From: Escherichia phage vB_EcoM_CUA3
Reading direction: 5' to 3' (one strand)
Sequence record: PP410321
Length of the DNA stretch: 64,000 bases
Part shown: positions 1-8,542 of the stretch, piece after piece
How positions within the stretch are numbered: position 1 is the stretch's first letter
How the letters are laid out: the number at the start of each line of letters is the position of its first letter
Program-made: the position numbers and the translations under genes
Notes under the pieces: generated by a model
Database searches by the model: none
The model's input: only the letters and a program-made list of their open reading frames with translations
Told to the model about the DNA's origin: nothing

Positions 1-68
1 GTTTTCAAAAGATATTTGAATACTGAATCTTTGTGCATAAGTCCTCCTACCACATCCATGTGATTAAA

Positions 69-296
69 TTATTTTCCTAAAGAAATACGGGTAGGTTTTT
101 TACCAAAGTATTCTTCATAAGAGCCATCTAAACGACCCGCTTTAGACCGACAATACGAATCGTACTTTTTGTAATAAGTCATCTCGGTATTATAACGCGG
201 GTGTCTATCGGCCATAATAATACTTAATGGCCAACCTTTGGCATAATCGCGAAGACCATTTATTTTACGAATGTATCTTTTCTTTAATTTTAGCAT
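69..296 (-). CDS. hypothetical small basic protein (75 aa)
   Basis: Minus-strand ORF; its ATG (294-296) overlaps the last codons of the upstream gene (tcATGcTAA); no recognisable motif. Confidence 0.4.
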   Translation of the reverse strand: MLKLKKRYIRKINGLRDYAKGWPLSIIMADRHPRYNTEMTYYKKYDSYCRSKAGRLDGSYEEYFGKKPTRISLGK

Positions 297-514
297 GAGC
301 TCGGGTACCAGATTTTACCATCAGAACGAGCAACGAAGGTACGTCCAGCTTCTTCACCATAACAAGAGCTGTTCAACCAGTCTTCGAGACGAACTTCACC
401 GTCATAATCATCGAGCTCAACACCGAAATCCTGAGCAGAAGCCATTTCTTTTACTTTCTTATACAGTGCAGCCAGTTCGAGTGCCGCTTTTTCTAATTCA
501 TTAATATCAGTCAT
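290..514 (-). CDS. small acidic protein, member 5 of tandem paralog array (C-terminus ...WYPSSC)
   Basis: ORF track; acidic N-terminal helix-like segment; C-terminal Trp-x-Pro-Ser-Ser-Cys-stop shared with the four upstream ORFs. Confidence 0.55.
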   Translation of the reverse strand: MTDINELEKAALELAALYKKVKEMASAQDFGVELDDYDGEVRLEDWLNSSCYGEEAGRTFVARSDGKIWYPSSC

Positions 515-526
515 TTTTTTNANNCC

Positions 527-736
527 TTAGCAAGACATAGAGGAGCTAAACCAGAAACCTTCACCTTCAGGAATACCGTAATCATCACGAACCCATTCGT
601 AATCATCATATTCCGGACTAGAAGCTGGAATATATTCTTCGCCACCGGCGTGGAAGTGCTGACCTGTTTCGTCAGCCACGGACTGGCCTTTACGTACTAA
701 TTCACGGATTTGTTTTTCAATTTCATCAATAGTCAT
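527..736 (-). CDS. small acidic protein, member 4 of tandem paralog array (C-terminus ...WFSSSMSC)
   Basis: ORF track; conserved tail; stop codon followed by TAAGG Shine-Dalgarno-like sequence for the next gene. Confidence 0.55.
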   Translation of the reverse strand: MTIDEIEKQIRELVRKGQSVADETGQHFHAGGEEYIPASSPEYDDYEWVRDDYGIPEGEGFWFSSSMSC

Positions 737-745
737 TTTATTACC

Positions 746-943
746 TTAGCATTCGTAAGAGGATGATACCCAAGAGGTACCACTAATTGTAATACAACCA
801 TTATAAAGCGTGATATGACGTTCCAGGTTACGTTGACCATCGATATAGATATCAGCTTCTTCGCGTTCTTCTTTACAAATCTGGATAACGTTTTCAATAG
901 CTGCGGCTGCAGTACGGATTGCACAATCTAATTCACGAGACAT
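746..943 (-). CDS. small acidic protein, member 3 of tandem paralog array (C-terminus ...WVSSSYEC)
   Basis: ORF track; conserved tail encoded with different synonymous codons than its paralogs. Confidence 0.55.
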   Translation of the reverse strand: MSRELDCAIRTAAAAIENVIQICKEEREEADIYIDGQRNLERHITLYNGCITISGTSWVSSSYEC

Positions 944-952
944 AATATTTCC

Positions 953-1234
953 TTAACATTCAGCAGAAGAGGACACCCAGCCGCCATTTTCTAGGTCGGT
1001 TGTGTAGTCATGAGTATTAACAATAGCCCATTCAGGATGACCATGTTCTTCCCAATGAGCAAGGTCAGCTTTCAAGGCGCCAGGAGAATAATAGTCACCG
1101 CCCATACCGCGAGCAGGGTATATATTAAAATGAGTCTCATATTTGTCTGCAATTTCCTCAGCACGACGAATAGCTTTATGGATGTCATTTACTGCGGCCA
1201 GNNNNTCTTTATTTTTACGGTAATCATTCATCAT
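953..1234 (-). CDS. small acidic protein, member 2 of tandem paralog array (C-terminus ...WVSSSAEC)
   Basis: ORF track; shares the internal EEIADKY...GGDYY segment with member 1; 4 N bases at 1202-1205. Confidence 0.55.
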   Translation of the reverse strand: MMNDYRKNKXXLAAVNDIHKAIRRAEEIADKYETHFNIYPARGMGGDYYSPGALKADLAHWEEHGHPEWAIVNTHDYTTDLENGGWVSSSAEC

Positions 1235-1243
1235 AGCGTTTCC

Positions 1244-1534
1244 TTAGCACATTGCCGAAGAGGAGACCCAAGCACCAACTGTAACGACACCGTTTTCAAC
1301 TTCGCCGCCGTTGTTTTCAATTTCATCTTTAAACCACTGGGAGCATTCATAACCGACCGGATAGTATGTACGTCCTGAACCATAATCGCCGGTACCGAAT
1401 TGGATACCATACTTATCGGCAATAGCTTCACATTTATGTTCGATGATATCTACTTTACCGAGTAGAGCATAGATAGCCTTTTCTGCAGATTTCTCGTCAT
1501 TGTATTCAGGGATTTCAATTTCAATTTTATTCAT
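1244..1534 (-). CDS. small acidic protein, member 1 of tandem paralog array (C-terminus ...WVSSSAMC)
   Basis: ORF track; AIADKYGIQFGTGDYGSG segment resembles member 2; conserved tail. Confidence 0.55.
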   Translation of the reverse strand: MNKIEIEIPEYNDEKSAEKAIYALLGKVDIIEHKCEAIADKYGIQFGTGDYGSGRTYYPVGYECSQWFKDEIENNGGEVENGVVTVGAWVSSSAMC

Positions 1535-1884
1535 GATTTACATTCCTTAATAAAGGTTTCAAGGTCATTACGTTTGGTTTGTTTTACATACTCATTATAA
1601 TTAGCCATCTCTAAAGCATATCTCTTACGGATTGGAGCATTCAAAGCATTTGTATGGCAAATATCATACACGAGAGGGATAAAATAAGTCACGACAGCTG
1701 GAGCGATTATCATATAGAAGCCCATCTCAATAGGCTTGACTCCTTCGATTGCCGCCATAACCGTGGTCATTACCAGACCAACCAGACCTCCGAGCATACC
1801 GGTGATAATTCCCGTAAATAAGGAAATAGCAATATCATATTCAGCCAATTGATAAACATGTGATGAAAGATTAGGCCGTTCCAT
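1531..1884 (-). CDS. small predicted membrane protein (about 117 aa, two hydrophobic helices)
   Basis: ORF 1531..1908; probable start ATG at 1882-1884 preceded by AAAGAGG; long hydrophobic stretches (GIITGMLGGLVGLVMTTVMAAI, FYMIIAPAVVTYFIPLV). Confidence 0.5.
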   Translation of the reverse strand: MERPNLSSHVYQLAEYDIAISLFTGIITGMLGGLVGLVMTTVMAAIEGVKPIEMGFYMIIAPAVVTYFIPLVYDICHTNALNAPIRKRYALEMANYNEYVKQTKRNDLETFIKECKS

Positions 1885-2413
1885 TTTGAACCTCTTTAGC
1901 GTATTCACGGCATTCTTTAATAAAATTATTAAGCTTACGTTGCTGTTTACGACTTTCTAATGTATACTCGTCTGCCAAAATAGTAAGTTCACCTTTATCG
2001 TAATTTTTAATATCCGAATAACTCGGGCGGCGGTCGACCATTCCAAATACATCACCGTTTTCTAGTGCCACATAACATACTAAATGATAATCATCATCTG
2101 CATCATTAATATGTACACAGTCGGTACTCTCGTTTAAAGAATATACCGAATATCTCACTCCGGCGAATTTAGCACTCTGTATACCCAATNNNNNGTCGAT
2201 GATTTCTAAAGCTTCTGCAAAAGAAAGGTCTTCAGCTAAAGCAAAGATAAAGGGTAATTTGGTAGTATCGCCACGGCTAGATGTTCTGCTTAAGAAATCG
2301 TTTGAATAGCCTAGGTCTTGGCGAATTCTATAAAGAACTGAATTGGTTTCATGGGAAAGACCACTATTTTTAAACCAATCAATATTTGATATCAAATTAT
2401 CATATAAACTCAT
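1871..2413 (-). CDS. hypothetical protein (180 aa)
   Basis: ORF track; ATG at 2411-2413 preceded by GGAGGAGAGGAG; 5 N bases inside; no recognised motif. Confidence 0.5.
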   Translation of the reverse strand: MSLYDNLISNIDWFKNSGLSHETNSVLYRIRQDLGYSNDFLSRTSSRGDTTKLPFIFALAEDLSFAEALEIIDXXLGIQSAKFAGVRYSVYSLNESTDCVHINDADDDYHLVCYVALENGDVFGMVDRRPSYSDIKNYDKGELTILADEYTLESRKQQRKLNNFIKECREYAKEVQNGTA

Positions 2414-2436
2414 AATATTCTCCTCTCCTCCAAATA

Positions 2437-2454
2437 GGGAGACCGAAGTCTCCC
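2437..2454 (-). terminator. stem-loop (gggagac-cgaa-gtctccc) between two minus-strand genes; possible attenuator/terminator
   Basis: Perfect 7-bp stem with tetraloop read directly; on the minus strand it is followed by TATTT and then the SD/ATG of the next gene. Confidence 0.4.
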
Positions 2455-2461
2455 GGTAATA

Positions 2462-3055
2462 TTACTTAAGTGAATTAATGTAGTCTTCGATATCAGCAGA
2501 AGTCGTATCCATTCCAACTTGTGGGCCTTTAAACGTTTCTACACGAAGCAGGGTATCTTCAATATCAATCTTAGTCAGTGCAGCGATTTCAACAACATCA
2601 TCGGCAGTAGCAATACCAAGGGCCGCCATATTACGAGTTTCACGAATGTACTCAAGCTTAACCGCTAGTTCCTGGCGAGAGTCATCAAGTTCCTTGACCT
2701 TAAGCTTAATTTCATTACGCATTTCAACATAATCATCGGCTTTCTTACGAAGTTGAGTAGCCGTACGACGATAAAGGAGGCCAAGTTTAGCATGCACCTG
2801 AACATCAGAGCCTTCTTTAATCAGTTTACGAATTTCTCGTTCTTTAGAACTAGCCAGTTGGTCCTTTTCGTTAGCGAGTTCACGGATACGTTTTTCTTCA
2901 TTCACAGACTTAACATGGGCAGTCTGGAGCTCAGTGATTTTATCAATCAGAGTAGAAGCAGCTTTGGTATACTGGTCTTCGATTGACAGGTTCTGAGTCA
3001 TTGCGGTACCCAGTTTAGAACGGATGAATTCAACGATTTTCTTTAAAGTGTTCAT
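2462..3055 (-). CDS. coiled-coil protein (about 198 aa), possibly PspA/IM30-like
   Basis: ORF 2462..3100; probable start ATG 3053-3055 preceded by AAGGAAA; charged heptad-like helical sequence throughout; PspA resemblance is impressionistic only. Confidence 0.45.
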
Positions 3056-3132
3056 AGTATTTCCTTCAGTCGGTTGATATTTTGTAATCCACGAGGACAT
3101 TATACCCTGTCCTCAGAGGTTTGTAAACATTT

Positions 3133-3531
3133 TTATTTCATTTTTGCGAGGCAGATTTCATTGGCTTCCCATTGAGCTTGCTTAATAATAGCTTTGGATA
3201 CAGGAACCCTTTGACCGTAAGTTTTTGATGTTGAGAGAACAATATGTTTGTTTGCTTCATTATGCCAGCCCCATGATTTTTCGCCATGAGTACCTTTAAC
3301 TACAGCTGACACCTCAACAGAGCAACCACCATCAGAAATCTTGGTTTCAACAATCCATTCATTTCTCTCAGCGGCTTCAATTTCCGATCTCCTTTTTTCT
3401 TCATACATGGCGGCCCAATCAGTTTTCGCCAGGTTGAAAGCAAGAGCTTTCTCTAATTCTTTGGCAGCTTTTTGTTGTTCGGGCGATAACGAATTATACA
3501 ACTCTTGCATTTCTTTATCTTCGATGTTCAT
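3133..3531 (-). CDS. hypothetical protein (about 133 aa)
   Basis: ORF 3133..3546 begins with a non-ATG codon in the track; first ATG at 3529-3531 is preceded by AAGGAG; conserved promoter/leader motif lies just upstream. Confidence 0.5.
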   Translation of the reverse strand: MNIEDKEMQELYNSLSPEQQKAAKELEKALAFNLAKTDWAAMYEEKRRSEIEAAERNEWIVETKISDGGCSVEVSAVVKGTHGEKSWGWHNEANKHIVLSTSKTYGQRVPVSKAIIKQAQWEANEICLAKMK

Positions 3532-3551
3532 TATGCTCTCCTTCACTCTGT

Positions 3552-3576
3552 TGTTTTGATAGGTCTATAGTATCAT
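3552..3576 (-). promoter_or_regulatory. conserved promoter/leader motif, copy 1 (minus strand reads ATGATACTATAGACCTATCAAAACA)
   Basis: One of three near-identical ~25-nt copies immediately upstream of minus-strand genes; contains an extended -10-like TGaTACTAT; upstream half masked by N. Confidence 0.4.
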
Positions 3577-4232
3577 NTTNNNNNNNNNNNNNNNNNNNNN
3601 NNNNNNNNNNNNNNNNNNNNNNNNNNNNNNNNNNNNNNNNNNNNNNNNNNNNNNNNNNNNNNNNNNNNNNNNNNNNNNNNNNNNNNNNNNNNNNNNNNNN
3701 NNNNNNNNNNNNNNNNNNNNNNNNNNNNNNNNNNNNNNNNNNNNNNNNNNNNNNNNNNNNNNNNNNNNNNNNNNNNNNNNNNNNNNNNNNNNNNNNNNNN
3801 NNNNNNNNNNNNNNNNNNNNNNNNNNNNNNNNNNNNNNNNNNNNNNNNNNNNNNNNNNNNNNNNNNNNNNNNNNNNNNNNNNNNNNNNNNNNNNNNNNNN
3901 NNNNNNNNNNNNNNNNNNNNNNNNNNNNNNNNNNNNNNNNNNNNNNNNNNNNNNNNNNNNNNNNNNNNNNNNNNNNNNNNNNNNNNNNNNNNNNNNNNNN
4001 NNNNNNNNNNNNNNNNNNNNNNNNNNNNNNNNNNNNNNNNNNNNNNNNNNNNNNNNNNNNNNNNNNNNNNNNNNNNNNNNNNNNNNNNNNNNNNNNNNNN
4101 NNNNNNNNNNNNNNNNNNNNNNNNNNNNNNNNNNNNNNNNNNNNNNNNNNNNNNNNNNNNNNNNNNNNNNNNNNNNNNNNNNNNNNNNNNNNNNNNNNNN
4201 NNNNNNNNNNNNNNNNNNNNNNNNNNNNNNNN

Positions 4233-4240
4233 TATTTATA
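4233..4240 (-). promoter_or_regulatory. T4-type late promoter TATAAATA (minus strand) reading into masked region
   Basis: Plus strand tatttata is the reverse complement of TATAAATA; the downstream gene is masked by N. Confidence 0.4.
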
Positions 4241-4269
4241 CAAAAAAGGCCCAACCTTTCGGAAGGGCC
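4241..4269 (-). terminator. intrinsic terminator hairpin ending the tRNA/small-RNA transcript
   Basis: ggccc aacc-tttc-ggaa gggcc stem-loop, followed on the minus strand by a T run (plus caaaaaa); identical 29-mer recurs at 51443-51471. Confidence 0.55.
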
Positions 4270-4271
4270 TT

Positions 4272-4439
4272 TAACCTAGGGTAACCTTGTCGGGGTTCCA
4301 CCTGCTAGGCAAGTGTTCNGTGCGCCGTTTCAGCTGTGAGATAAGGGACTTTAAGATGAACTCATGTACGCCTTAAAGTCGGGTCTTATTCAGGGAACAT
4401 CAGTCCGACGACTTACCGGTAGCGACCCGGTTTCTTGTT
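4272..4439 (-). ncRNA. candidate small stable RNA between tRNA-Arg and the terminator
   Basis: ~170 nt non-coding, GC-rich interval inside the tRNA transcription unit with no tRNA T-loop signature; T4 is known to carry small stable RNAs in its tRNA cluster. Confidence 0.25.
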
Positions 4440-4515
4440 TGGTCGAGACAGTAGGGATCGAACCTACGACCCAGGACTTAGAAGGTCCTTGCTCTTCCTT
4501 CTGAGCTATGCCTCG
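4440..4515 (-). tRNA. tRNA-Arg (anticodon UCU)
   Basis: Manual cloverleaf fold of the reverse complement: acceptor CGAGGCA/TGTCTCG, D-arm GCTC/GAGC, anticodon loop CTTCTAA, T-arm GTAGG-TTCGATC-CCTAC, encoded CCA; 76 nt. Confidence 0.8.
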
Positions 4516-4519
4516 TATT

Positions 4520-4594
4520 TGGCGGACATGCATGGATTCGAACCATGGACCAATTGATTAACAGTCAACTGCTCTACCACTGAGCTACACATCC
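4520..4594 (-). tRNA. tRNA-Asn (anticodon GUU)
   Basis: Manual fold: acceptor GGATGTG/CATGTCC, D-arm GCTC-AGTGGTA-GAGC, anticodon loop CTGTTAA, T-arm CATGG-TTCGAAT-CCATG, encoded CCA; 75 nt. Confidence 0.8.
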
Positions 4595-4598
4595 AAAT

Positions 4599-4672
4599 TG
4601 GTGGCCCTGGGTGGAATCGAACCACCATCCAGCGATTATGAGTCGCTCGCTTGACCGTCCAGCTACAGGGCC
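4599..4672 (-). tRNA. tRNA with CAU anticodon (Ile2/lysidine-type or Met)
   Basis: Manual fold: acceptor GGCCCTG/CAGGGCC, anticodon stem-loop AGCGA-CTCATAA-TCGCT (resembles the E. coli tRNA-Ile2 anticodon arm), T-arm GGTGG-TTCGATT-CCACC, encoded CCA; D-arm atypical. Confidence 0.65.
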
Positions 4673-5577
4673 TTAATTNNNNNNNNNNNNNNNNNNNNNN
4701 NNNNNNNNNNNNNNNNNNNNNNNNNNNNNNNNNNNNNNNNNNNNNNNNNNNNNNNNNNNNNNNNNNNNNNNNNNNNNNNNNNNNNNNNNNNNNNNNNNNN
4801 NNNNNNNNNNNNNNNNNNNNNNNNNNNNNNNNNNNNNNNNNNNNNNNNNNNNNNNNNNNNNNNNNNNNNNNNNNNNNNNNNNNNNNNNNNNNNNNNNNNN
4901 NNNNNNNNNNNNNNNNNNNNNNNNNNNNNNNNNNNNNNNNNNNNNNNNNNNNNNNNNNNNNNNNNNNNNNNNNNNNNNNNNNNNNNNNNNNNNTCTATTA
5001 TGAAAGGCTCTTTGAGTGAAGAACCTTTGGTAATAGAGGGTATTAATGATAGAGTAATAATATCATATAATTCTTAAAGCATATTAANNNNNNNNNNNNN
5101 NNNNNNNNNNNNNNNNNNNNNNNNNNNNNNNNNNNNNNNNNNNNNNNNNNNNNNNNNNNNNNNNNNNNNNNNNNNNNNNNNNNNNNNNNNNNNNNNNNNN
5201 NNNNNNNNNNNNNNNNNNNNNNNNNNNNNNNNNNNNNNNNNNNNNNNNNNNNNNNNNNNNNNNNNNNNNNNNNNNNNNNNNNNNNNNNNNNNNNNNNNNN
5301 NNNNNNNNNNNNNNNNNNNNNNNNNNNNNNNNNNNNNNNNNNNNNNNNNNNNNNNNNNNNNNNNNNNNNNNNNNNNNNNNNNNNNNNNNNNNNNNNNNNN
5401 NNNNNNNNNNNNNNNNNNNNNNNNNNNNNNNNNNNNNNNNNNNNNNNNNNNNNNNNNNNNNNNNNNNNNNNNNNNNNNNNNNNNNNNNNNNNNNNNNNNN
5501 NNNNNNNNNNNNNNNNNNNNNNNNNNNNNNNNNNNNNNNNNNNNNNNNNNNNNNNNNNCATATTAATATAGTCAAGT

Positions 5578-6023: not shown

Positions 6024-6238
6024 AANNNNNNNNNNNNNNNNNNNNNNNNNNNNNNNNNNNNNNNNNNNNNNNNNNNNNNNNNNNNNNNNNNNNNNNNNNN
6101 NNNNNNNNNNNNNNNNNNNNNNNNNNNNNNNNNNNNNNNNNNNNNNNNNNNNNNNNNNNNNNNNNNNNNNNNNNNNNNNNNNNNNNNNNNNNNNNNNNNN
6201 NNNNNNNNNNNNNNNNNNNNNNNNNNNNNNNNNNNNNN

Positions 6239-6424
6239 TTACTCACCTTTAGAGATTTTATCCATAACGAAAGAGATTGAACCAATTAAGAATGCCACTA
6301 CTAAAGAGATTGTATTCTCGGAAGTTGTAAGCAAATCCAACATGAATCCTGCAAACATACTAAAGCCAAAAGCAGTAACAGCGGCCAGTGCAGTAACATT
6401 TCTAATTAATTCGCAACGTTTCAT
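6239..6424 (-). CDS. small predicted membrane protein (61 aa)
   Basis: ORF track; two hydrophobic segments ([33 protein letters not shown]); conserved promoter/leader motif copy immediately upstream. Confidence 0.5.
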   Translation of the reverse strand: MKRCELIRNVTALAAVTAFGFSMFAGFMLDLLTTSENTISLVVAFLIGSISFVMDKISKGE

Positions 6425-6445
6425 TTTATTATCCNNNNNCTCATN

Positions 6446-6469
6446 TGTTTTGATAGGGCTATAGTATCA
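6446..6469 (-). promoter_or_regulatory. conserved promoter/leader motif, copy 2 (one substitution)
   Basis: tgttttgatagggctatagtatca; same element as 3552-3576 and 6812-6836. Confidence 0.4.
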
Positions 6470-6764
6470 NNNNNNNNNNNNNNNNNNNNNNNNNNNNNNN
6501 NNNNNNNNNNNNNNNNNNNNNNNNNNNNNNNNNNNNNNNNNNNNNNNNNNNNNNNNNNNNNNNNNNNNNNNNNNNNNNNNNNNNNNNNNNNNNNNNNNNN
6601 NNNNNNNNNNNNNNNNNNNNNNNNNNNNNNNNNNNNNNNNNNNNNNNNNNNNNNNNNNNNNNNNNNNNNNNNNNNNNNNNNNNNNNNNNNNNNNNNNNNN
6701 NNNNNNNNNNNNNNNNNNNNNNNNNNNNNNNNNNNNNNNNNNNNNNNNNNNNNNNNNNNNNNNN

Positions 6765-6786
6765 TAAATTCTTGATAAGTTTTCAT
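6765..6786 (-). CDS. internal protein (IP) gene, visible N-terminus only: MKTYQEF capsid-targeting sequence
   Basis: ATG at 6784-6786 followed by codons for K-T-Y-Q-E-F; I recall MKTYQEFIAE as the N-terminal capsid targeting sequence of T4 internal proteins; gene body masked by N (6470-6764). Confidence 0.55.
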
Positions 6787-7072: not shown

Positions 7073-7780
<708 letters not shown>

Positions 7781-7788
<8 letters not shown>

Positions 7789-8542
7789 TTTTATTTCCTA
7801 ATAATTTATCAATAGTAGTGTATAGTTCAGAAAGAGTGCCGTTATTTTCAACAACAACGTCACCAGGTAAAATTGGTAGACCCGCTTCAGTGATGTGCGA
7901 GTCTTGTACTTGACCGGTTTCAGCGCGAACTACATGAATAATCGTAGCACCCATCGCTCTGAGCGAATCAATTTCGTGTGTTTGACGAACATCAGGTACG
8001 ACATAGTATTTCGCATCAGAGTATATTTTATCAAAATAGTCTAAAGCGAACAACTTAACCCAATACATCTTATCAAATTGGTTAACAATAATATCAGTCC
8101 CAAGGGTCTGCATGAGACGACGTACTGACCAATTGTTATTTTTATTTATTACTTCAAACAGCTGGTCTTTTGTTTCTTCAGACAGATACTGAACTGGGGT
8201 AAGACCATAATGATACGCGGTACGAACATCAATTCCTGGAATAGGAAGGATATTATTCAGCTTAACAATAGCATGTTCAAAGATATCAATAACATCATAT
8301 GGTTTTAAAGGAAGGGCTTCTTCACGGTCATAACCGATGCCTTCAAAACAATTAAAATCCAATTTAGGCATATAGCTACGGTCGAATACAGGGTCATCAG
8401 ATATGTATTCATAAGCTTCAGCCAGATACTTTTTAATAGGACCCGCGAGTTGGAATTTTACAGAATCCATATTCTCAATTACATAGTTAGCAACGGTATC
8501 CTTACCGCTACGTTTGATTCCTACAATTGATATTAGTTTCAT
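7781..8542 (-). CDS. 1: gp1 deoxynucleoside monophosphate kinase
   Basis: MKLISIVGIKRSGKDT P-loop-like N-terminus and synteny (between 57A and 3); stop/start overlaps with neighbours. Confidence 0.85.

Follow-up and report, generated by a model that had tools for sequence, protein, structure and literature searches.

Which genes occupy the minus-strand block that leads into the WxSSSxxC paralog array of Escherichia phage vB_EcoM_CUA3, and what might their products do together in the infected cell? The block was analysed within a stretch of 64,000 nucleotides (nt) of sequence record PP410321, referred to here as the window, and consists of four genes designated, in the direction of transcription, orfD, orfC, orfB and orfA. 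Three of them are counterparts of the T4 genes e.6 (orfC), e.5 (orfB) and e.3 (orfA), and orfD fills a variable slot in front of them. A unit made of an early promoter, e.6 and a hairpin, a short C-terminal tail shared by otherwise unrelated neighbouring proteins, and a predicted PspA-like architecture for e.6 are offered below as testable leads, not as established facts.

Over its first 3.6 kb the window shares 92-93% DNA identity with NC-G, JS10 and JS98, and on this basis it is a Dhakavirus, a JS98/JS10-like T4-type phage (the JS10 record carries the taxonomy Straboviridae, Tevenvirinae, genus Dhakavirus). The four minus-strand open reading frames (ORFs) lie where an initial annotation of the window had placed them, and each is preceded by a Shine-Dalgarno sequence. 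Compared with phages JS10 and CLB_P2, each gene has a ratio of nonsynonymous to synonymous substitution rates (dN/dS) within 0.04-0.20, which indicates purifying selection, and every ORF matches a PHROG family (E = 8e-45 to 1e-111); the four are therefore real genes rather than chance ORFs, and the coding signal on which the initial annotation depended is present. In T4, the e.3, e.5 and e.6 proteins have been seen during infection (PMC9697503 supplements). The reading frames are closely packed: 14 nt are common to orfB and orfA, and an ATGA combines the stop codon of orfA with the start codon of the first array paralog. Two X residues in orfB come from five masked bases (a short masked run at 2189-2193).

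The initial annotation had regarded these as accessory genes that resemble no T4 structural or replication protein. They are indeed co-directional with the array, non-structural and non-replicative, and no structural or replication homolog was found; three of the four do, however, match T4 proteins, namely e.6, e.5 and e.3. These are the only T4 homologs, and their entries name no function, so nothing points to a characterised housekeeping role. The comparison with T4 e.1-e.8 that had been suggested pairs orfC with e.6 (74% identity across all 197 residues), orfA with e.3 (same PHROG) and orfB, remotely, with e.5; orfD is unlike e.7.

For orfC the assignment is firm. The protein falls in phrog_1203, the T4 e.6 family (E = 1.5e-83), JS10 annotates its counterpart as e.6 (named msp3 in T4 record L13089), and the genomic context of the family is found here as well, downstream of a tRNA cluster, with its own early promoter, then a stem-loop, then e.5. 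By homology and context, orfC is the ortholog of T4 e.6, and is called e.6 below. A longer reading of 212 amino acids (aa), from an ATG inside the -10 box, is unlikely because the promoter stands upstream of the 197-aa start and homologs have 195-202 aa. The protein is strongly conserved, with a mean column identity of 67% and dN/dS of 0.04-0.07. It occurs in 1110 phage records, and an exhaustive HMMER search of 1.84 billion representatives gathered e.6-like proteins in 46 clusters at 50% identity, with full-length members of about 195-209 aa. Among function-unknown genes of T4-like phages, e.6 is one of the most widely conserved. Literature searches on e.6, or on phage PspA/ESCRT-III, turned up no functional study, and the name "host specificity protein" (RAST/UniRef) carried by some homologs is automated, with no experimental support found.

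The neighbourhood of e.6 is conserved too. The comparison covered 39 IMG/VR loci and four GenBank loci, with e.6 identities from 98% down to 32%; the order e.6, spacer, e.5-like gene, two-transmembrane (two-TM) genes is kept in about 40 loci from 98% to 50% identity. Sizes are also held within bounds: 195-202 aa for e.6, 35-63 nt for the spacer, 180-290 aa for the soluble protein, followed by one to four two-TM proteins. The WxSSSxxC array closes the unit in many genera, though not in T4. On this comparison, the unit of early promoter, e.6, hairpin, e.5-like gene and two-TM genes is conserved in T4-like phages of enterobacteria, Aeromonas and Erwinia. In T4 itself the order reads tRNA cluster, e.8, e.7, e.6, e.5, e.4, e.3, e.2, nudE and e; in JS10, endolysin gene e and nudE likewise lie downstream on the same strand.

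Conserved order can be read in a different way, and this is the main rival to the reading developed below: the genes would be accessory units of a hyperplastic region, each independent and exchangeable, that stay together through their common early transcription and are reshuffled by recombination of the kind ascribed to promoter/stem-loop (PeSL) cassettes. In 40 loci, the position ahead of e.6 is filled by members of 12 unrelated BLAST clusters, a locus may have anything from 0 to 4 two-TM genes, and T4 has no array, all as this explanation would have it. It fits less well with an order of e.6, hairpin, e.5-like and two-TM genes that persists from 98% to 50% e.6 identity while adjacent slots turn over, or with the strong conservation of e.6 itself. 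We consider it doubtful as an account of the whole block; were it true, the region would be an ordinary hyperplastic accessory region and the value of this analysis a corrected annotation only.

Transcription signals bear on the same question. The promoter in front of e.6 matches 11 of 12 consensus positions and is the sole such match in 1-4400. Its equivalents score 10/12 in T4 (where -35 and -10 are annotated in L13089), 11/12 in two loci with 71-72% e.6 identity (L102 and L103), and 9-10/12 in loci with 62-64% identity. All this agrees with the T4/PST early consensus TTTACW-N17-TAYWAT (PMC4122927), which the independent-gene explanation can also claim, that consensus being the one found in PeSL cassettes. 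RNAs of T4 e.3-e.8 are classed early, and among the proteins e.4, e.5, e.7 and e.8 are early, e.6 middle and e.3 late (PMC9697503 supplements). The four genes are co-transcribed and early-type. An inverted repeat, GAGGAC-N10-GTCCTC, also lies at 3093-3114 on the minus strand, and its loop takes in TATAAT, the -10 box from which e.6 would be transcribed; the repeat itself would be transcribed solely by read-through from orfD and could therefore act as a PeSL-type composite terminator/promoter.

Behind e.6, 7 nt past its stop, comes the stem-loop that the initial annotation had located at 2437-2454, and it lies exactly there, with a 7-bp stem, a UUCG loop and a centroid energy of -13.4 kcal/mol. 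Of the 29 distinct e.6-e.5 spacers examined, 28 have a hairpin at the same place, in most cases with UUCG as its loop, and in T4 record L13089 a stem-loop is annotated immediately behind msp3. Stems vary by lineage (GGGAGAC, GGGGC, GGGCCTC, CCGGGGA, GAGGGC and others) with compensatory changes, so that structure rather than sequence is maintained. The 61-nt region around the stem-loop folds no better than shuffled versions (z = -0.5), and a terminator scan missed the hairpin because only three U residues follow it. The element is probably a leaky terminator or 3'-end stabiliser between e.6 and e.5. With its own promoter in front and the hairpin behind, e.6 would thus be made in excess over the genes downstream.

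Those downstream genes differ in how readily they are recognised. The orfB product belongs to phrog_8788 (E = 1e-111) and matches phrog_2607, the T4 e.5 family, weakly (E = 0.009); by BLASTP its last 15 residues align with T4 e.5 and nothing else does. A chain of BLAST alignments of 142-180 aa nevertheless leads from the window through loci L093 and L110 to T4 e.5. In hhalign, the Dhakavirus group reaches 88% probability against a third group (L087 and L104-L111) and the T4 group 97.7% against the same, with 71% for the direct comparison. Its position directly after the e.6 hairpin is kept in 41 of 42 loci, and its dN/dS is 0.13. Together these point to orfB as probably a divergent, remote member of the T4 e.5 family.

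The orfA product is easier to place. It matches phrog_2330 (E = 8e-45), the family that contains T4 e.3 (E = 2.9e-57; also placed there in the PMC11879866 supplement), and aligns with T4 e.3 over its full length by BLASTP (E = 1e-8). The two strongly hydrophobic helices noted earlier in this ~117-aa protein are borne out at residues 20-38 and 54-72 (Kyte-Doolittle 1.98 and 1.89), and both orfA and T4 e.3 have two TM segments. Homology and hydropathy thus place orfA in the T4 e.3 family, as an inner-membrane protein with two TM segments and a basic tail at its C-terminus. Since a lysine/arginine-rich stretch follows the second TM segment, the topology would be N-in/C-in, with the tail in the cytoplasm; dN/dS is 0.10-0.20.

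The e.5-like and two-TM proteins, otherwise unrelated, end alike. Their common motif comprises a hydrophobic residue, two variable residues and then F-[IV]-x-x-C-[RK], as in FIKECR (orfB), FIKECK (orfA), FVKECR (T4 e.5), FVIDCR (T4 e.3, which ends FVIDCRK), FVDYCR (Aeromonas phage Riv-10) and FINYCR (Erwinia phage COW86c), with the relaxed form FVKESR in T4 e.4. The strict form is carried within the final 22 residues by 37/38 proteins at the e.5 position and by 39/72 TM proteins downstream (65/72 of these TM proteins for the relaxed form), and by none of the 283 ORFs upstream of e.6 in the same loci. Within the 64-kb window it is found in the tails of orfA, orfB and one probably spurious ORF only. 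An alignment of 18 e.5-like sequences with 11-21% identity retains five invariant columns, three of which are F164, C168 and R169. A signal at the DNA level, such as the Shine-Dalgarno sequence of the next gene or a recombination site, was considered and rejected: the F, I/V, C and R codons form no Shine-Dalgarno sequence, and the arginine is encoded by CGT in orfB and AGA in T4, which argues for selection on the peptide, not the DNA. An i, i+3/4, i+7 spacing would put the motif residues on the same side of a helix.

If the genes of the block were merely thrown together, the motif would presumably mark the common descent of the e.3, e.4 and e.5 tails, and e.6 would be a generic coiled coil with a non-membrane target, for example a host protein that it inhibits; both belong to the explanation by independent accessory genes and share its doubtful standing. 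Invariance of F, C and R in e.5 proteins that have otherwise diverged to 11-21% argues for a maintained function instead of residual ancestry. A common docking helix is the simplest reading, and e.6, encoded immediately upstream, is the obvious candidate for its partner. In the literature searched, no description was found of the shared motif or of a PspA-like architecture for e.6.

How far can e.6 be regarded as PspA-like? The initial annotation had described a charged, helical protein of ~198 aa with a faint resemblance to PspA/IM30 N-termini. An AlphaFold2 (AF2) model built from a 35-sequence alignment predicts the 197-aa protein to be all-helical, with helices at residues 3-19, 25-80 and 86-145, a short one at 151-160, and others at 166-173 and 186-196 (mean predicted local distance difference test score, pLDDT, 73; 80-95 in the hairpin). 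Order and approximate size we take to be those of alpha0, alpha1, alpha2/3, alpha4 and alpha5 of PspA/Vipp1. In a Foldseek search of the PDB with this model, the top eight matches are all Vipp1/PspA (E = 3.7e-3 to 1.8e-2, probability 0.97-1.0), and the archaeal ESCRT-III protein CdvB2 is prominent among those that follow. The N-terminal helix, helical but poorly positioned in the model (pLDDT <50), has a hydrophobic moment of 0.46 and a net charge of +3 over residues 2-19, where PspA alpha0 has a moment of 0.42; among 35 homologs F10 is invariant and K5, I11 and K14 nearly so. From these properties we infer that the predicted helix may bind membrane.

Profile comparison adds to this. By hhalign, e.6 aligns collinearly with a PspA/Vipp1 profile (residues 1-178 against 1-174; score 25.6, P = 0.005-0.007), where shuffles of 7-column blocks score 13.7+/-2.2, with 0/100 reaching 25.6, and reversed profiles 16-17. 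The PspA/Vipp1 profile is shallow (effective number of sequences, Neff, 2.9), drawn from two metagenome scaffolds, one actinobacterial plasmid gene and two Vipp1 from PDB alignments. A less diverse PspA alignment, assembled from a protein search, a GTDB genome scan and plasmid tblastn, consisted almost wholly of relatives with >82% identity and gave an hhalign probability of 0.6%. Canonical PspA (PF04012-type) was itself encountered in 2 of 50,697 phage records (L128 and L129); both are unverified scaffolds from human-gut metagenomes and may be bacterial in origin.

Several results speak against a PspA-like membrane scaffold with docked partners, and they deserve to be seen together. Every Foldseek E-value for e.6 is above 1e-3. 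The hhalign probability for PspA is just 5-7%, nearly all the signal lies in residues 1-63, and with 21-column block shuffles (15.7+/-1.9) one in 100 reached the e.6 score. The moment of the N-terminal helix is not significant alone (permutation p = 0.065). Even at E <= 10, not one of the 35 e.6 homologs matches either PF04012 or PF03357, searching the PDB with an e.6 profile returned no PspA or Vipp1, and the exhaustive HMMER search returned e.6-like proteins only, with no PspA/IM30 or Snf7. The motif could bind a host target instead of e.6, and no phenotype was found for any T4 counterpart. Finally, the e.6 homolog of a Klebsiella phage (Kp_GWPR59, a Pseudotevenvirus; 32% identity) is an exception to the conserved unit, with no motif-bearing or two-TM neighbours beside it; that gene lies within the nrdD-nrdG region, flanked by a Seg-like homing endonuclease and a 316-aa protein. 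The resemblance noticed at first thus has modest support from fold prediction and from an N-terminal profile match above shuffles, whereas family membership fails every sequence test. The architecture of e.6 may be PspA/ESCRT-III-like, and homology is no more than a possibility. The missing sequence link between e.6 and PspA is also what independent accessory genes would predict, and no paper linking e.6 with PspA or ESCRT-III was found.

What the products might do has to be judged against knock-down data and family searches. In a CRISPRi-ART knock-down of T4, e.2-e.8 were all "Not fit", meaning no measurable fitness effect in the laboratory host; the authors of that study state that the method gives false negatives. 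The main text of the HIDEN-SEQ preprint makes no mention of e.3-e.7. None of orfA-orfD has an above-threshold match in Pfam, NCBIfam or PADLOC scans, and for anti-phage-defence or anti-defence families the best PADLOC match (E = 0.0019; PDC-M48A, orfA) and the best NCBIfam match (E = 2e-4) are far below cut-off. Sequence and profile searches of the PDB with e.6, the e.5-like family and orfD found nothing. Weak matches to TssN, Mu Gp27, PsbQ, LptE and KCNQ1 were dismissed as noise.

Our preferred reading, held tentatively and as a possibility, is that e.6 is an early peripheral-membrane helical scaffold with motif-tagged e.5-like and two-TM partners, conditionally useful under membrane stress, exclusion or defence. 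The protein would be made early from its own promoter, probably in excess, with the hairpin limiting read-through. It would form a helical-hairpin scaffold resembling PspA/Vipp1 of the ESCRT-III superfamily, applied through its basic amphipathic N-terminal helix to the cytoplasmic face of the host inner membrane. The e.5-like and two-TM e.3/e.4-like proteins would each end in a cytoplasmic amphipathic helix carrying F-[IV]-x-x-C-[RK], and these tails would probably dock to one common partner, for which e.6 is the candidate; the recruitment of PspA by PspB and PspC is a parallel. Such a module might stabilise or remodel the host membrane in infection, or it might oppose effectors of exclusion or abortive infection that target the membrane. 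On a laboratory host that lacks defences the phage could do without it, in keeping with the "Not fit" outcome for e.2-e.8 in the T4 knock-down, a result that independent accessory genes would equally produce.

A stronger version, which we regard as rather unlikely, makes the block a phage Psp-like module in which e.6 is an extremely diverged PspA/ESCRT-III-type scaffold, recruited to the inner membrane by its own helix, by e.3/e.4 and by e.5 as a soluble adaptor, the partners all displaying one and the same C-terminal docking helix in the cytoplasm. The energised membrane would then be preserved or remodelled, for example against pore-forming abortive-infection effectors or a superinfecting phage.

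Two weaker alternatives start from the membrane proteins and from the neighbourhood. The two-TM protein, perhaps with e.5 and e.6, might be a superinfection-exclusion or immunity device that blocks DNA entry by secondary phages, as T4 Imm does. Imm is an 83-aa early inner-membrane protein; orfA and T4 e.3/e.4 are likewise small two-TM proteins whose T4 RNAs are early, they are dispensable in single-infection laboratory assays, and orfA homologs diverge rapidly (51-97% identity within close relatives). Family searches, however, gave no similarity to Imm or Sp, which T4 already encodes elsewhere in its genome, and the conserved soluble partners and shared cytoplasmic motif are left unexplained, so that exclusion is clearly improbable. 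As for lysis, related genomes have endolysin gene e within a few kilobases of the block, e and nudE are downstream on the same strand in JS10, and faint matches link orfA to a holin family (phrog_9407, E = 0.006) and e.6 to the Rz-like LysB (E = 0.26), which might suggest holin, antiholin or spanin-like functions. Both matches are far below threshold, the T4 e.4, e.5 and e.6 proteins are early or middle rather than late (e.3 is late, though), knock-down has no measurable fitness effect, and the holin, antiholins and spanins of T4 are known genes at other loci; a lysis role is highly improbable.

Should e.6 be PspA/ESCRT-III-like with motif-tagged partners, it would be a virus-encoded membrane-maintenance machine of a kind otherwise almost absent from phages, and would offer a direct means of studying membrane management by T-even phages, or their escape from defences that target the membrane. 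No lytic phage has been studied better than T4, yet its e.6 block is without a proposed role; the F-[IV]-x-x-C-R tail, being open to mutation, is a simple place at which to test one.

Table 1. Positions of the genes, signals and motifs discussed, in window coordinates.
Feature	Position	Strand	Description
three tRNA genes	4440-4672		upstream of orfD on minus strand
orfD	3133-3531	-	132 aa; slot upstream of e.6
early-type sigma70 promoter	3099-3127	-	TTTACA-N17-TATAAT
orfC (e.6)	2462-3055	-	197 aa
e.6 N-terminal helix, residues 2-19	2999-3052	-	predicted amphipathic and basic
GC hairpin	2437-2454	-	GGGAGAC-UUCG-GUCUCCC
orfB (e.5-like)	1871-2413	-	180 aa
orfB C-terminal motif FIKECR, residues 164-169	1907-1924	-	
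orfA (e.3 family)	1531-1884	-	117 aa
orfA C-terminal motif FIKECK, residues 111-116	1537-1554	-	
WxSSSxxC paralog array	69-1534	-	downstream of orfA

The remaining gene of the block, orfD, occupies the T4 e.7 position and is not homologous to e.7. Its AF2 model (mean pLDDT 86.7) begins with three helices and ends in a conserved beta-beta-beta-alpha domain, whose motif is SVEVSAV.KG.HG..SWGWH. Other phages have this domain by itself (76 aa) or preceded by a different N-terminal domain (195 aa): homologs of 195-203 aa in Enterobacter-type phages (P0084, P0108 and P0077) carry an extra 65-aa N-terminal domain (PF26909/phrog_2183), and others are reduced to 76 aa. It is thus the small beta-beta-beta-alpha domain that is conserved, in modular combinations. 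Fold and sequence searches with orfD gave no functional lead, and it is most likely an independent, exchangeable accessory gene.

At the other end of the block, the array proteins belong to phrog_899 and follow the e.5-like and two-TM genes in one to four copies. The array is also found downstream of e.6 in many T4-like genera (loci L086, L102-L111, L115, L119 and L121-L126), and an Erwinia phage array protein shares 54% identity with a window copy. Array and motif proteins taken together, the block holds two families with a conserved cysteine at or near the C-terminus.

Further upstream, the window is N-masked at 3580-4230, 4651-5019, ~5100-5560, 6040-6250, 6440-6770 and 7560-7720, so that the gene directly upstream of orfD (555 nt in JS10) and parts of the trna.2-trna.4 region are unreadable. 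Within 4236-4440 on the minus strand, ~165 nt separate tRNA-Arg from a strong terminator-like hairpin, AAGGCCC...GGGCCTTTTTT, after which TATAAATA, the T4 late-promoter consensus, borders the masked block. The T4 equivalent of this stretch encodes the stable RNAs rnaC and rnaD; an Rfam scan of 2400-4700 returned the three tRNAs only, with no match for the stretch at the rnaC/rnaD position. Minus-strand ORFs at 7073-7528, 7528-7788 and 7781-8542 (151, 86 and 253 aa) have the order and sizes of T4 57B (the nuclease Acb1, which acts against the cyclic oligonucleotide-based antiphage signalling system, CBASS), 57A and gene 1 (deoxynucleoside monophosphate kinase), identities judged solely by position and the T4 map.

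Comparison with known systems helps to place the block. Helical-hairpin scaffolds with BAR domains (SNX5, Vps5, F-BAR, I-BAR) share 5-10% identity with e.6 and rank below Vipp1 in Foldseek; BAR modules are eukaryotic dimeric three-helix structures, and such matches are typical of any long antiparallel helical model. PspA/Vipp1 (IM30) is similar in length class (222 aa against 197 aa for e.6) and to the predicted layout of e.6, with an amphipathic N-terminal helix, a short ED linker, a hairpin of ~56 + 60 residues and shorter C-terminal helices. As pspA adjoins pspB and pspC, so e.6 is encoded beside small membrane proteins. Unlike PspA, e.6 has a shorter C-terminal region, belongs to a family confined to T4-like phages, is driven by an early sigma70 promoter and not by sigma54/PspF, and has neighbours unrelated to PspB/PspC.

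PeSL cassettes are known in the hyperplastic regions of T4-type phages (Arbiol 2010; Comeau 2014, PMC4122927), and the block resembles them in an early promoter that matches the T4/PST consensus, in GC hairpins that punctuate the genes and in a highly variable adjacent slot. It differs in that the e.5 ribosome-binding site, not a promoter, follows the e.6 hairpin, and in that e.6 and e.5 are stably linked rather than shuffled. The closest parallel is the T4 block, whose e.6, e.5, e.3 and e.4 are msp3-msp6 in L13089 (phrog_1203, 2607, 2330 and 2604): promoter, e.6, stem-loop, e.5 and membrane genes follow one another downstream of the tRNA cluster in both. The window, however, has a single two-TM gene against the pair in T4 (e.3 and e.4), an unrelated orfD replaces e.7, the WxSSSxxC array that T4 lacks comes next, and orfB has no detectable similarity to e.5 outside its C-terminal 15 residues. 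The genes are thus not new; they are Dhakavirus members of the catalogued, uncharacterised T4 e.6/e.5/e.3 block, together with one variable cassette.

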